Part shown: positions 24,048-37,776 of the stretch, piece by piece
Position numbering within the stretch: the first letter of the stretch is position 1
Layout of the letters: every line of letters begins with the position of its first letter
Virus record (IMG/VR): IMGVR_UViG_3300005611_000013
Coordinates: 9,082 to 73,081 of that record
Reading direction: 5' to 3' (one strand)
Length of the DNA: 64,000 bases
Source of the DNA: a virus
Lineage: Duplodnaviria > Caudoviricetes
Translations under genes and position numbers: made by a program
The notes under the pieces: generated by a model
Seen by the model: only the letters and a program-made list of their open reading frames with translations
Told to the model about the DNA's origin: nothing
Databases searched by the model: none

Positions 24048-24524
24048 TTTAATTGTACCTCATTTTTCGCTGGCTGTAGACATCTGGACGATCTGTATAG
24101 TTCCGCCAGTACATTCTACTCTATTATCGGCACTTGTCAAGTACCACTTTAATTTTTATTCTCTTTTGGTATATATGTCTAGACCCCATCCCTTATCAGA
24201 TACCATAGGTTCTGATTGGAAAGGGCCAGTATTAGCTTATAGTGGTATGTATCTGATATATGGACCAGGACGCTGGGGTCTATGTAGGATCAACTACCTA
24301 CTCGTTGCCTGGACGGCCCAATGGCCTTTCGCTAACACTCGTCTCAACCCACTTATGAGGACTAGCCTCTCCAAACGTCGTATATTGTTTGGCTTTCTTT
24401 ATGCTTGGTATTGTTTTTCGTCTAATAATCCAAGAGAATAACGACATAGGGGAGGATTTCCAGCCCACCCCTCTACATACTAACGTCTTAATCAGATTAT
24501 TGCAAGGGCAATTTTTCTGAAATT

Positions 24525-24823
24525 CCGCTGGCTGTACCTATGTTGCCGATCTTTAAAGTTTGGGTAAGACAAACTCTAACTTATTATCCTTCATATTGAC
24601 GGCGTAACTATTAGCCATCCTTATAGTGTCTATATCGTGAATTACACACTTAGCATATACATTAACCCGCCACCTATTTTCAAATGTATTAATAGACCTA
24701 CAATGAGAATAATTACTGGGCTTCTCAATGTAATTAAAAATTAGATCACAAGGGGTCATCTTCATATCCATAAATTCTCCTATAAATAGTAAAAACCGCT
24801 GGCTGTACCTATGTTGCCGATCT
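24525..24823 (+). repeat. 28-bp direct repeat flanking a small ORF
   Basis: CCGCTGGCTGTACCTATGTTGCCGATCT at 24525-24552 and 24796-24823; ORF MKMTPCDL...PKL lies between them and ends at 24553. Confidence 0.9.
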
Positions 24824-24846
24824 GTAAAGATAGGGTAGTACAACCC

Positions 24847-24914
24847 TGAACCTTTGTACACTACTATACATCTGTACACTAGTGAACATACGTACACTAC
24901 TATACATACATACA
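24847..24914. repeat. Tandem TGWAC-N4-GTWCA boxes, 18-bp period
   Basis: TGAACCTTTGTACA (24847), TATACATCTGTACA (24865), TGAACATACGTACA (24883), TATACATACATACA (24901). Confidence 0.75.
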
Positions 24915-25128
24915 TCCATTAATCAATCTGATGGAACTCCATTATACCATGAGGAAATCTGAAAGTCAACGTAAGTGCTTGATATCATTAGACTTACGTC
25001 ACCGACGCCCCGCCCCCCGAGCCGTAAGTCCTTTGTTTTCAACGACTTACGTCACCGGGGCGAATGGAGAGCGGGAGAACGGGGCTGATGAACAGATGAA
25101 CACGGCCCCGTCTCCCTTCCCACCACCT

Positions 25129-26331
25129 TTACAGTGTAAGAGCGTACACCTTCTCATAATCCTTGTCGGTGTACGTTCGTGAACGTGCGAGAATGTTAGT
25201 CCATCGTGATGCACTAGTGTCCATCAGTAGACCGCCGATCTCATCAAGACGAACCCATGACTCATTATCAAACACCTGACCCGCACGGGTGATGGCGTTG
25301 ATGATACCAAACTTGTTATGCTCATGGGTTTCATGGGCAAGATACTGCTCAAGCGTTTCCGTTGCCTGTTTCTTGCTCAACTTGAAGTCGGAAGCAACGG
25401 CAGCGATAACACCCTTGGCGTTTGCATTGTCCATTGATTCCGCACGGGTATCAAGGAACTTACGAATACCGTCAGGAAGGATGGACAACTGAAACTCAAT
25501 GTTTTCAGCAATCATAATCTTGAGTTTATCAAGATCAATCTTTCCACGGTGAACCCGTGAAATATCCTTACCCTTTGTCTGACCCCAGATGCAACCATTC
25601 ATGCAGATCGCACGAAAGAGGCTAGGCGTCTGCGTGATGCGGCGTTTGCCGATCTCACAGTTACCCACAGAAACCATGCCACCGTAGTCGGTGTCGTCAT
25701 CCTGACCATAATCAATAACAGAGTCAGGAATCAGAAGGTTGCCGTAGATAGTATCCTCATCACCCTTCCAGTGTGAGAACCGTGCATCGGGCAGGAACTC
25801 ACGAAGAGTTTCCAGATACCAGCGGTTATCAATCGGGGCATACTTATCGGTAACAAACGCACGGGCAGTCCCGTCAGTATAGGTGCGAAGGCGAAACTCC
25901 TTGTCGGCATCAATCCGACGCAGAGCGTTATTGCCAATGCGGGCCATGAGGTCGGCATCGTGCTCATCGTACCCATCCAGTTTGCGAAGTTCACGCATGA
26001 CGCTGGACGATGGAACCTTGGTGCGGATGCTAAACTGCTCCAGGCAGTGATCCGTTGGCGTGAACGAGCGACCGTCAGCAGTGGTGAACTGCATGACATC
26101 ATTCACAACCGTGCAGGAAATCTGCCCAGCCTTGACCATGACATCCTCACGGTTATCAATGGCGTTTTGAGTCTTCTCAAGAACGTCATCGTAGGATTCA
26201 GTTTTAGCCCACCAATCTTTGTGGACATGGGCATTCTCTGCAAATCCTGTTCCGGTCGCACCTGTCAGGTTGCGAACAAATGAACCCGCAGTAATATCGC
26301 TATCAATCTTGATTTTCTCGTAAACAGTCAT
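25129..26331 (-). CDS. DUF932-family phage/plasmid protein
   Basis: ARAFVTDKYAPIDN...VGNCEIGK...LFRAICMNG...FGIINAITRA pattern. Confidence 0.7.
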   Translation of the reverse strand: MTVYEKIKIDSDITAGSFVRNLTGATGTGFAENAHVHKDWWAKTESYDDVLEKTQNAIDNREDVMVKAGQISCTVVNDVMQFTTADGRSFTPTDHCLEQFSIRTKVPSSSVMRELRKLDGYDEHDADLMARIGNNALRRIDADKEFRLRTYTDGTARAFVTDKYAPIDNRWYLETLREFLPDARFSHWKGDEDTIYGNLLIPDSVIDYGQDDDTDYGGMVSVGNCEIGKRRITQTPSLFRAICMNGCIWGQTKGKDISRVHRGKIDLDKLKIMIAENIEFQLSILPDGIRKFLDTRAESMDNANAKGVIAAVASDFKLSKKQATETLEQYLAHETHEHNKFGIINAITRAGQVFDNESWVRLDEIGGLLMDTSASRWTNILARSRTYTDKDYEKVYALTL

Positions 26332-34795: not shown

Positions 34796-35045
34796 TTTTC
34801 TTTCCTTTTCCTTTTCCTTTTCCTGATTCTACCAAAGTTTTTTTTGCTTGTCAACACTGAAAACTTGTTCAGTAGTTGTCGGGAAGGGTGATCCAAAACA
34901 GGAAGGCCAACCCCGAGAGAATGATGATTGTGATGATGTTTTCCATGCTAGAATATAGTGCGAATGCCGTGCCAAACCCTGAAAAATATTTTTGTGCTTT
35001 TTTCCCGTGTTTTACGCACATTTTTTTTCGTGCCTATTTTTTAGG

Positions 35046-35126
35046 CGTAGCATTTTGCAACAGTGGTGTAGCATTTTGCGTCACTGTTTTCCCGAGTGAA
35101 ATCGCAAAGTGTAGCATTTTGCAACA
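35046..35126. promoter_or_regulatory. Three phased TGTAGCA-TTT-TGCAACA palindromes (enhancer/UAS-like)
   Basis: Starts 35046, 35067, 35110 (21 and 43 bp apart), between divergent sigma54-like sites at 34974(-) and 35182(+). Confidence 0.7.
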
Positions 35127-35386
35127 CCCCCCACTGGTGGTAACGCTTTTGGGCTGCTCACAGATTAGGCAGTGCGTTTTTTGGCACGGAAGTTGCTGTA
35201 GTGTGCAAATATCATGCCAAACGCTATCCGTCCGGTTTGGGTGAGACATGGCACGGCGTTTGCCATGGCAAGTGACGTAAGTCCTTATATATCAACGACT
35301 TACGACTCGGGCGGCGGGGCTTCAGCGACGTAAGTCCTTTATTCCCAAGGGTTTACGTCACCGCCCGCTAGCCACTGTACATACGT

Positions 35387-37129
35387 TCAGGTATCCATCT
35401 GTTCAGCGTATGCCTCATCCATCATCATCATCTCTAGTGTACGCCTGTTCAGTTCTTCCATGTGTTCAGCATGTTCAGCCGATTCAGTGTACAGACGTTC
35501 ATCTTCACACATTCCGGGGTAGTAGGTGTCCATGTGTATAGTGCTCCTTTGTTCAGTTGGAGGATTCGGGATACCAGTGGAGACGAAGTTGGTTCGCACA
35601 GTTTGCAATCAAGTTGCGATGAAACTGGCGGTCATACTCATCAAGATCCCAACGTTCTAGGCAGATCTGGCTCTGCTTGATGGCAGAGATGAGATCCTGC
35701 ACTTCATAGTCAAGATCTGAAAATCGGAATCCGGGGGTTTGTGCAACGCTCATTTTTCTTTCCTTTTCCTTTGTGATGCTCTGATTCTACCAGAGATTTT
35801 CTTGCTCGTCAACACTGAACATGTGTTCAGTCAAGGTACTCTAGGCCAGTAATCTTGTCTTCGTGAAACGTCTTCGTCTCACCGCTGGTCAACAGTACGG
35901 TGATGCAGTAAACGTTTTTCAGTGAACGAAACCGGCTCACCACTTCACCGTCGCGGGCCTTGCCATTGTAGAAAAAGCGGATTCTTGGGTTTTTCATGTC
36001 TTTCATCTCCTTGGGTATGTCCTGATTCTACCAAATGTTTTTCGGGCTGTCAACACTGAACAGGTGTTCAGATCAGATCGTTCACCAGTTCGTTGCCATT
36101 CTGGTCAACGATCCTGAACTCTGTAGCGTGGTCGCTACCTTCCCAATCGCCACGGACAATGTTTTCCAGCATGGCGGCATTGCTGTGAGTGGTGTACCCA
36201 ATCACTTCGCCATAGATGTCATAGATACGGGCGATGAACAGAGGTGTAGTTGTGAAGTTCATTTTCTTTTCCTTTTCTTTCTTTTCCTTACTTCTTATAT
36301 CGGCATTCTACCAAAGATTCTTGAATCCGCAATACTGAACAAATGTTTTTTTGTGTCAAGATTTCTTGACAAAGATCGCAGCAAGATTGCGGTCGTTTGG
36401 CACGCAGTGTGCTATTGCAAATATCGTGCCAAACTTTTTGGCATGGAAAATGCGTCCCGAAGTGACGTAAGTCCTTTCATATCAACGACTTACGACTCGG
36501 GCGGCGGGGCCGCGATGACGTAAGTCCTTTATTCCCAAGGGTTTACGTCTCACGGTGGCGAACGCGGTGTACATGCGTCTACCTAGTGTACAGTTGTGAG
36601 TACTGAACAGATGTCTACCTGTACATGCGAATCCCCCTCATTAGAGAGAGGATTCTAGAAGGTGATGGTCAACCTGATTCTCATAGAAGTTGCGATACTC
36701 TCCACCTTCAAGGCGAACGCAAATCAAGGCACCCCTCTGGTAGAGATCCTCTGAACGATCCTCGCGGATGCTCATGATCTCGCCAGTGTACCGGTTTCCA
36801 CTCTTGGAAACCCATTCCACACTGTCACCGATCTTGTAGCGGTTTGAAGCGTTGACGTTGATGAAGTTTTTCATTTTTCTTTCCTTTGGTTTCTTTCTTC
36901 TTCTTCTATTCTACACTATCGGCTTTTGGGTGTCAACCCCTTGAATGGATTTTTTTCAGCAGGCCAACGCTCCTGCTTGGCGTAGGATGGACATGCTGTA
37001 CATGTTTTCATCACCATCCCACTTTTCCCAAGCCGCTGTTTCGGCTTCTTCCTTTGTCTGGAATGGACCAATGTAGTCCAGTTCGCATTCCCAAGCATCC
37101 ATCACGAGAGCGTAGTAGTTGTAGATCAT
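35387..37129 (-). CDS. Small early-type ORFs
   Basis: 35387-35608, 35553-35753, 35827-36006 (manual, MKDMKNPRIRFFY, SH3-like), 36068-36262, 36641-36874, 36956-37129 (manual, MIYNYYALV). Confidence 0.55.
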
Positions 37130-37776
37130 TTTCTGTTTCCTTTTCTTCTTTCTTTCCTTTTCTCTATTCTAGACTATCGGCAATCCGCTGTCAACCCCTT
37201 GAGGATTTTTTTTTCGGATTTTTTTTGCCTCTCGTCTTTCCCTCTCAACTATGCCACCATTATACCAAACGATCCAGATTTGTCAATACTGTACAAATGT
37301 TTTTTTGGGATTTTTTTTTGTGTGCAAATATCATGCCAAAAATCATTGGCACGGCAAATGCGTCTGAAAGTGACGTAAGTTGTTGGTATCAAAGGACTTA
37401 CGACGCTGGCGGCGGGATGGCAGATACGTAAGTCTAGGCATATCAACCACTTACGACTCATGGTAAGATGGGTGGGGTGGGGGTTTTATCTTCAAAAGTG
37501 AACTTGGGTAAAATGGCGAAAAAGCCCGGGGTGGTTCAAACAAAATAACCCCAATCAAATTAATATGTCTTACCCGATCTCTTCAGATAGACCCTAAGAG
37601 TTGCTAAATATTACCGCAATGTGTATAATATCACTAGGAGGAAACAACTATGAAACAGAAGAAACAAATAGACTGTCAATTGAATTGCAAAGCGACCGCA
37701 TCTTTGTCGTTAGAAGTATTAAACGATTTAAATCAAGAAGATCGCCCCATTGCATCCATAATTAACGACGAACGAA

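Follow-up and report, generated by a model that had tools for sequence, protein, structure and literature searches.

The prevailing view of phage early transcription is that it depends on sigma70 promoters together with modifiers made by the phage. In T4-like phages, repeated composite elements of early regions have been described as promoter-early stem-loop (PeSL) cassettes (Arbiol et al. 2010, PMC2839356; Comeau et al. 2014, PMC4122927), and the PeSL elements sit between cassettes that vary in presence and order among close relatives (PMC4122927). Here we analyse a locus that resembles these cassettes in layout and departs from them in its parts. It occupies positions 24113–37455 of a 64,000-nucleotide (nt) stretch, hereafter the window, of a 73-kb IMG/VR virus fragment estimated to be 48% complete, whose parent genome is that of a large, virulent-type uncultured aquatic phage of about 150–170 kb. 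The locus is the start of the leftward early region, beside a divergent junction, and forms a hyperplastic immediate-early region with 32 small leftward open reading frames (ORFs) on the minus strand, two tRNAs and one tRNA-like gene, together with 27 sigma70-type promoters, nine palindrome units, 16 sigma54 sites and 27 TGWAC boxes. An earlier note on this DNA had seen in it a lattice of host transcription-factor sites, acting either as a decoy or sponge or as a multi-input regulatory island. From the arrangement of the sites, we consider it moderately likely that the region is productive modular wiring of a hyperplastic early region and not a DNA sponge.

One repeated module in the early region

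Motif counts in the region were compared with those in 200 dinucleotide-preserving shuffles. All four motif families that the earlier note had called recurrent were found where it had placed them, each far more often than in the shuffled controls. Sigma70-like sites (≥10/12) numbered 26 on the minus strand (shuffle mean 1.6, maximum 6) and 0 on the plus strand (shuffle mean 1.5), and a second, independent scan returned 27 and 1, respectively, where ~23 promoters had been claimed. The palindrome CGTAAGT-N15-ACTTACG (≤3 mismatches) was present in exactly the 17 copies announced, against a shuffle mean of 0.4. Sigma54 sites of the GG-N10-GC type numbered 13 at ≥9/10 (shuffle mean 0.37) and 19 at ≥8/10, with four at 10/10, and the opposed clusters in which they had been said to lie are present as (+,−,+) groups. 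TGWAC-N4-GTWCA boxes, put at >20 with near-matches, came to 14 exact (shuffle mean 0.1) and 13 near copies, that is, 27 at ≤1 mismatch (shuffle mean 2.0); no exact box was found in the remaining 50.7 kb of the window. The low coding density was likewise borne out, at 66% overall and 55% in 33000–37455, counting the 32 small minus-strand ORFs, which bear a Shine-Dalgarno (SD) sequence, and the three tRNA or tRNA-like genes.

Together, the four families make up the cis-regulatory portion of a single boundary-plus-promoter module that recurs through the region. Read leftward, this module comprises a gene stop, one to five TGWAC boxes, a palindrome doublet, a sigma54 triplet (in 5 of 9 cases), an A-rich tract, a sigma70 promoter and an ORF, and start codons sit behind a long purine-rich SD (AAAGGAAAAGGAAAG). 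In a second promoter type, a TGAACA-N2-TGTTCA box ends 3 nt upstream of the −35 hexamer. Of the 27 sigma70 promoters, 22 directly precede an SD and start codon or a tRNA (≤60 nt); the remaining promoters are upstream members of tandem sets at 37286, 32480/32295, 29346 and 24969. Promoters stacked with no ORF between them do exist, as had been observed, at 37286/37194, 32480/32295/32215, 29346/29174 and 24969, but the intervening DNA is occupied by TGTACA/TATACA arrays and a conserved element of ~55 nt. The five copies of this element (24062–24114, 24520–24572, 24791–24843, 29188–29240 and 32311–32363; minus-strand consensus TTGTAC..ATCTNTACAGATCG..GTACAGCCAGCG) lie in 5′ leaders or between tandem promoters. 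A scan of the region for intrinsic terminators showed no enrichment (14 found versus 11.2 expected). In all, tiny ORFan genes and tRNAs are parcelled into about 20 self-contained expression cassettes that together make up the region, and the repeated module supports the idea of a composite multi-input island with fixed geometry. Host sigma70 RNA polymerase would fire these cassettes, a function that we infer from their layout, and the repeated modules would double as recombination points that shuffle them, as PeSL elements do.

The palindromes recur well beyond this phage. In the window, 16 of the 17 copies pair up into eight doublets at a pitch of exactly 53 bp, and the copy at 33676 stands alone. 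The exact core CGTAAGTC-N-TT-N7-AA-N-GACTTACG occurs in 117 IMG/VR loci, of which ~100 carry several copies, with a doublet pitch fixed by lineage at 42, 48, 50–53 or 58 bp, and the palindrome was also found in relatives picked out via a denV-like gene. In all, 629 distinct palindrome units were counted across uncultured phage contigs. In a set of 488 units, a strong sigma70 promoter lies within 200 bp in 235 and points away from the palindrome in 213 of those 235, at a distance that peaks at 35–54 bp. All 15 palindromes of the complete relative G001 (173.8 kb) lie with early promoters in one 10-kb stretch, where exactly 68 or 78 bp separate the second palindrome from the −35 hexamer. G008, a complete relative of 161 kb with direct terminal repeats, likewise has palindromes where its early region starts. 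The doublet thereby marks early regions, and its copies are probably joints for the exchange of ORFan cassettes. Minus-strand ORFs at 23.3–33.0 kb are conserved in relatives in a different order (for example, L013), and those at 33.0–37.5 kb have no homologue in the loci of these relatives. The closest relative, L329 (93% identity in the 263-amino-acid (aa) protein), has few ORFs in common with the stretch, and its matches are almost confined to the regulatory modules that lie upstream of the junction.

Sigma54 sites, a probable enhancer repeat and the lack of a phage activator

Fifteen sigma54 sites fall into (+,−,+) clusters between 30293 and 37362 (at 30293, 33608, 35182, 36398 and 37323), and one more stands at 34959. 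The extended sigma54 consensus TGGCACG has G at position 7, directly after TGGCAC. This position was not scored, yet 13 of 15 sites in the window and 85 of 154 across the clade carry G there. Between the divergent sites at 35182 (plus) and 34974 (minus) lies a triple direct repeat of GTAGCATTTTGC, enhancer-like and running as (T/C)GTAGCATTTTGCRWCA on the plus strand (35046..35126; copies at 35046, 35067 and 35110, spaced by 21 and 43 bp). It is 55 bp from the plus site and 72 bp from the minus site, with phased T-tracts in the spacers.

This arrangement recurs widely. Viral contigs with two or more copies of GCAAAATGCTAC within 35 nt number 58, and such metagenome contigs at least 118. A sigma54 site follows 36 of 42 distinct enhancer clusters from other phages, mostly 86–94 nt downstream, and in 19 of the 42 a divergent sigma54 site lies mostly 47–55 nt upstream. 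Enhancer-linked sites are then followed by a conserved leader, tATATA..ATAAGAAAGAGAGAG, with an ATG at about +33 and ORFs of 40–76 aa from several families; in the relative L012, for example, a sigma54 site, an SD and an ATG come after the enhancer repeat.

Across the clade, three classes of site differ in what lies downstream. The 47 enhancer-linked sites have 74% A+T in the next 12 nt, and 34 of them have an SD and ATG. Sites facing a palindrome (n = 66) have 50% A+T and an SD and ATG in a single case, and those pointing away from one (n = 43) have 61% A+T and two such cases. By unit, a sigma54 site points into the palindrome from 10–19 nt in 64 of the 629 distinct units and away from it at 20–59 nt in 49, the outward-pointing ones usually ~35 nt upstream of a co-directional sigma70 promoter. 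Of the 18 sigma54 sites in G008, 11 crowd into 3.7 kb where the early region begins. Because their position is fixed relative to the palindrome, an enhancer is shared and the coding output is conserved, these sites look genuine rather than look-alikes.

We propose, tentatively, that a large, widespread clade of aquatic phages may wire early genes to host sigma54 through copied enhancer sites of the NtrC/AtoC/LuxO type, and that palindrome-locked sites may park silent polymerase; the reading is one we hold with less than even confidence. On our main reading of the region, the sigma54 sites would be true host sigma54-polymerase sites of two kinds. Enhancer-linked sites, 55–90 bp from a triple repeat, would be canonical activator-dependent promoters for small phage genes, whereas palindrome-facing sites would hold silent polymerase as a local roadblock or fire antisense; a titration role for the latter is possible but unsupported. 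The literature searched offered no account of sigma54-dependent promoters in lytic phage genomes, nor of enhancer-dependent ones in a lytic-type phage without its own activator.

The activator would have to come from the host. Searches for PF00158 (the domain of bacterial enhancer-binding proteins) and for the sigma54 DNA-binding domain found neither in the record nor in the complete or near-complete relatives G001, G002–G005 and G006–G009, with only sub-threshold AAA+ noise; five of these relatives (G001 and G006–G009) are complete. The lack of a phage activator or sigma54 gene therefore implies a host activator, and the enhancer-linked promoters would read the activity of a host regulator of the NtrC/AtoC type. 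A candidate context comes from positions 558–2700 of the bacterial contig L484 (63% G+C). An AtoS-like histidine kinase and an NtrC-family activator, with AtoC as its best match though under the equivalog cut-off, are encoded there; behind them come two GCAAAATGCTACA repeats, REP-like repeats and the sigma54 site TGGCACGATTTGTGCA. This single case offers a lead that the phage enhancer may copy the binding site of a host response regulator. The earlier suggestion that the island reads host state is in this respect upheld for one input, as the sigma54 and enhancer sites very probably read a host regulator.

Several observations weigh against the main reading. The window's own enhancer-linked promoter (TGGCACGGCATTCGCA, 34974–34959, minus strand) is without the conserved SD leader and precedes only an almost leaderless 25-aa hydrophobic ORF (34946–34869). 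It is homologous in layout to the enhancer-linked promoters of other phages, with the leader deleted here, and this copy may be decaying. The commonest sigma54 arrangement, into the palindrome from 12–15 nt, has no ORF and fits no canonical explanation; the 12 nt after such sites are 50% A+T versus 74% at enhancer-linked promoters, and convergent −12 elements, as in the (+,−,+) triplets, are unusual in working promoters. No palindrome binder was identified, the conserved 258- and 263-aa neighbours having no identifying Pfam or PDB-sequence match. The AtoC-like link comes from one bacterial contig of 63% G+C, and the presence of sigma54 and of an activator in the host is a prediction.

If the promoters are real, the phage could sense a host two-component signal at takeover, and its small takeover genes would be expressed only in a particular host signalling state. 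The second sigma54 class would then be a programmable roadblock or sink between early cassettes, and the enhancer repeat would provide a cis-motif handle for naming the host regulator, and perhaps the host, of an uncultured clade.

Two other assignments of the sigma54 sites were weighed. The palindrome doublets might themselves be enhancers for a second activator, driving the outward sigma54 sites and boosting the tandem sigma70 promoters. The palindrome centres at about −74 and −127 from the window's minus-strand sigma54 sites would suit this, as would the five helical turns of the doublet pitch, the doublet of G008 that is flanked by divergent sigma54 sites and the 49 outward-pointing sites of the clade. 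We nevertheless regard it as unlikely: the dominant class points into the palindrome (64 cases), most palindrome units, in G001 and many other loci, have no sigma54 site, and an SD and ATG rarely follow outward-pointing sites (2 of 43).

Slightly less credible still is that the TGGCAC-N5-TTGC elements are read by a phage factor, either the sigma70-region-2 protein encoded at 38517–39044 or an unrecognised activator and polymerase pair. A small sigma-like protein is indeed encoded beside the array and conserved in 23 palindrome-bearing loci, and the complete genomes hold no activator. Yet the elements match the sigma54 consensus almost perfectly, down to the GG-N10-GC spacing and the unscored G at position 7; the tandem repeats at about −100 with phased A/T-tracts are like those of activator-dependent promoters; and the same repeat adjoins an NtrC-family activator gene and a sigma54 site in L484. 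A sigma with region 2 only would moreover be expected to read a −10-like element, as T4 gp55 does.

Palindrome doublets and TGWAC boxes

The variation among palindrome copies speaks to the nature of this element. Among 309 partner palindromes, chosen by position rather than sequence, the two arms vary independently: double changes at pair 6:24 number 40 versus 38.7 expected (odds ratio 1.08), and the odds ratios for pairs 8:22 and 10:20 are likewise near 1. At position 9:21, 75 of 174 copies are mismatched, with C/C or G/G. When both strands of 16 modules were folded, eight folded better on one strand and eight on the other, with no consistent U-tract. Because the arms change independently and there is neither strand preference nor U-tract, a duplex protein site is favoured over a hairpin, and the palindrome is probably the site of a dimeric protein with two tolerated half-site variants. 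Judging from the character of the site and its placement, doublets would let such a protein act on the promoter 35–54 bp downstream, either as an upstream regulator or as an insulator separating units that have no intrinsic terminators.

The palindromes could instead be RNA or single-stranded DNA hairpins, that is, terminators, RNase III sites, 5′ stabilisers of sigma54 transcripts or attC-like sites. They do lie between transcription units without intrinsic terminators, a sigma54 start would coincide with the palindrome's first base, folds of −30 to −57 kcal/mol per module are possible, and PeSL stem-loops hold the same position (PMC4122927). We judge this improbable in view of the independent arm changes without compensatory excess, the frequent 9:21 mismatch and the even split between strands; in addition, sequence rather than structure is conserved across phages of 35–50% G+C, and no Rfam family was matched. 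A CRISPR mini-array or attC was rejected as well: the repeats are unlike in their loop parts, what would be the "spacer" proves to be a G+C-rich tract that is conserved, and the arms show no covariation. In a sub-lineage with 79–81% identity to this phage (L013, L333 and L335), G+C-rich hairpins (GCGGCCC..GGGCCGC or CCCCCTCC..GGGGGG) replace the palindromes, and the back-to-back sigma54 sites are retained.

The label of IHF site, to which the earlier note had pointed, is not established. The IHF core WATCAANNNNTTR has six exact matches in the region, all inside palindromes (6 of 17), and the match comes largely from constant palindrome bases. Bacterial genomes gave 113 loci with the palindrome core, spread over many phyla, many of them single perfect hairpins after tRNA or other genes and, by a rough estimate, about the number expected by chance among terminator hairpins. 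Other hits resemble mis-binned phage contigs, and a few Planctomycetota metagenome-assembled genomes (MAGs) hold core-containing repeat families. With mostly perfect hairpins after genes, and for the rest phage-like contigs and a few Planctomycetota repeat families, making up the hits, they name no host factor. Activator genes adjoin the palindrome in three bacterial loci at inconsistent placements and were treated as chance. The multi-copy repeat families around the core belong to two Planctomycetota MAGs of 56–63% G+C (L207, L212, L238, L242, L256, L278, L285 and L293; L208, L214, L246, L265, L290, L306 and L315), and in one of these core copies form a doublet at a pitch of 78 bp.

TGWAC boxes sit just upstream of −35 hexamers or in arrays and are confined to this phage and its closest relatives; they would serve as operators, and the lineage-specific repressor that binds them would be encoded by the phage or be a LexA-like protein of the host. 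The label of LexA operator is not established for them: a GAAC-N4-GTTC core is present in 6 of the 14 exact boxes, the rest being GTAC hybrids, and none fits CTGT-N8-ACAG.

Least probable, and in our view very doubtful, is the decoy or sponge that had been suggested as main function, in which the chief effect of the DNA would be to soak up host sigma54 polymerase, nucleoid proteins and repressors during replication, with transcription incidental: the 16 sigma54 sites in 7 kb, far more than in relatives, the palindrome-facing sites without coding output (SD and ATG in 1 of 66), the lack of a phage activator and the silent closed complexes that sigma54 polymerase is known to form all suit it, but a pure sink needs none of the fixed positions and orientations that every site class keeps relative to promoters and gene ends, the sigma70 sites are co-oriented with genes 26:0 and apparently mostly productive by layout (22 of 27), enhancer-linked sigma54 sites carry SD and ATG units conserved in many phages, palindromes keep a preferred distance from promoters pointing away (213/235), and relatives keep the module at low copy, the complete G001 retaining its 15 palindromes with one palindrome-adjacent sigma54 site and no TGWAC boxes.

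Layout of the region and comparison with known systems

Followed leftward from the junction, with sigma70 promoters, ORFs and tRNAs on the minus strand throughout, the region opens with palindrome doublet 1 at the divergent early/late junction (37374–37402 and 37427–37455, pitch 53) and a sigma54 pair, minus TGGCATGATATTTGCA at 37338–37323 and plus TGGCACGGCAAATGCG at 37347–37362, the latter ending 11 nt before the palindrome. Tandem sigma70 promoters (37286–37259, 37194–37166) then precede ORF 37129–36956 (57 aa), and promoter 36936–36908 precedes ORF 36874–36641 (77 aa). TGTACA-type boxes (36560–36630) stand before the next doublet (36466–36494 and 36519–36547), which is accompanied by a sigma54 triplet (plus 36398–36413, minus 36431–36416 at 10/10, plus 36439–36454). 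Beyond it, a weak promoter, TTGCGG-16-TAGAAT (36332–36305), precedes ORF 36262–36068 (64 aa); box TGAACAGGTGTTCA (36057–36070) and promoter 36053–36025 precede ORF 35997–35827 (56 aa); and box 35816–35829 and promoter 35812–35784 precede ORFs 35753–35553 (66 aa) and 35533–35387 (48 aa). Three further boxes within 35376–35501 lead to the doublet at 35276–35304 and 35329–35357 and its sigma54 cluster (plus 35182–35197 at 10/10, minus 35219–35204, plus 35249–35264 at 10/10).

Past the enhancer repeat and the sigma54 promoter at 34974–34959, three box-promoter units follow closely: box 34858–34871, promoter 34854–34826 and ORF 34795–34562 (77 aa); box 34551–34564, promoter 34547–34519 and ORF 34489–34298 (63 aa); and, after promoter 34356–34328 with a 25-aa hydrophobic ORF (34286–34209), box 34198–34211, promoter 34194–34167 and ORF 34134–33808 (108 aa). 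Both 25-aa ORFs, at 34946–34869 (MENIITIIILSGLAFLFWITLPDNY) and 34286–34209 (MFSVLSIVLFFVVFYLLFNSSPVEY), are strongly hydrophobic. The boundary module at 33608..33836 combines boxes at 33728–33836, the single palindrome (33676–33704) and a sigma54 triplet (plus 33608, minus 33641–33626, plus 33649). Promoter 33566–33538 then precedes ORF 33498–33331 (55 aa), and promoter 33316–33289 precedes ORFs 33264–33016 (82 aa) and 33005–32691 (104 aa).

A box (32597–32610) and a doublet (32497–32525 and 32550–32578) introduce the stacked promoters 32480–32453, 32295–32268 and 32215–32187, with a TGTACA array (32339–32447) and the 55-nt element between them; after the 32215 promoter come ORFs 32134–31934 (66 aa), 31923–31759 (54 aa) and 31759–31268 (163 aa, pyrimidine-dimer glycosylase). 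The tRNA-like gene (31259–31176) has its own consensus promoter (31353–31326) and was called by neither ARAGORN nor Rfam; promoter 31174–31147 leads to tRNA-Lys (31138–31065), and promoter 31062–31034 to ORFs 30970–30848 (40 aa) and 30847–30437 (136 aa). The doublet at 30360–30388 and 30413–30441 comes with a sigma54 triplet (plus 30293 at 10/10, minus 30326–30311, plus 30333), promoter 30261–30234 and ORF 30206–29502 (234 aa, DUF7227). Next are box 29475–29488 with the doublet 29376–29404 and 29429–29457, stacked promoters 29346–29319 and 29174–29147 with a TGTACA array between, ORFs 29109–28966 and 28961–28743, and promoter 28739–28711 ahead of tRNA-Ile (28689–28613) and seven ORFs down to 26783.

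The last two doublets lie at 26701–26729 and 26754–26782, and at 24970–24998 and 25023–25051. The former precedes promoter 26670–26643 with ORF 26621–26376 (81 aa) and promoter 26401–26373 with ORF 26331–25129 (400 aa), and the latter precedes promoter 24969–24941, a TGTACA/TATACA array with an 18-bp period (24845–24908), the 55-nt element and ORF 24771–24553 (72 aa). At the left end, promoter 24140–24113 precedes ORF 24047–23622 (141 aa). About 380 nt just before it (24141–24520, minus strand) hold no convincing ORF and are preceded by a promoter-like TTGCAA-17-TAGTAT; the ORF-free stretch 24145–24490 had a fold z-score of only −1.44 and no Rfam match. For the region's elements as a whole, Rfam matched tRNAs alone, both at the gathering threshold and at E ≤ 1.

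G+C climbs across the region from about 35% to 40–51%. The minus strand of the window also carries rIIA/rIIB-like genes, thymidylate synthase, a group I intron, seven tRNAs and a transfer-messenger RNA (tmRNA). The thymidylate synthase ORF (6427–8121) is split by an HNH endonuclease-like segment, and the intron (18604–18793) scored 69 bits. The tmRNA gene (10095–10448, Rfam 97.5 bits) encodes the tag peptide GETHLALAA, whose form GE..ALAA recalls Bacteroidota tags; a Bacteroidota host is disfavoured because the phage promoters are of sigma70 type. The plus-strand block, which runs from 37650 onward, includes the sigma70-region-2 protein, a GDP-mannose dehydratase, a T4-type large terminase and structural genes. 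The region-2-only protein (175 aa, plus strand) is T4 gp55-like and is kept beside the palindrome arrays of its 23 loci with neighbour proteins of 57, 258 and 263 aa. Among GenBank phages, megablast of 13.5 kb, tblastn of a 674-aa structural protein and blastn of one doublet gave no relevant match; in public sequencing runs, about a quarter of the region's words were found in 11 studies, including two RNA runs at a small share.

Set against described systems, the locus comes close to PeSL cassettes in being a repeated composite element in a hyperplastic region of small ORFans. In both, an early promoter close to the sigma70 consensus is joined to an SD and a start codon, an inverted repeat adjoins the promoter on its upstream side, and gene order changes and indels occur between close relatives (here L013 and L329). 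The locus differs in that its inverted repeat does not look like a terminator stem-loop, given the independent variation of the arms, the many mismatches and the lack of a U-tract. The upstream element is instead a sequence-conserved 29-bp palindrome, usually doubled at a pitch of 42–58 bp around a G+C-rich spacer and common to phages of very different G+C content, and the module adds sigma54 sites, an enhancer repeat and TGWAC operators.

With bacterial sigma54 promoters such as glnAp2/NtrC, atoDAEB/AtoC and qrr/LuxO, the phage sites share TGGCAC-N5-TTGCW with GG-N10-GC spacing, two or three tandem sites ~70–150 bp upstream with phased A/T-tracts between, and divergent promoter pairs served by one enhancer; the phage repeat TAGCATTTTGCAA is one base off the LuxO consensus TTGCAW3TGCAA. 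Unlike the bacterial promoters, the phage sites belong to a genome of virulent type with no gene for sigma54 or for an activator, the genes that they would drive are tiny ORFans, and a second, more numerous site class abuts a palindrome without coding output. Finally, the early regions of T5, T7 and T4 likewise begin with many near-consensus sigma70 promoters in one orientation, some of them in tandem; to these, the present locus adds conserved palindromes, sigma54 sites and operators.

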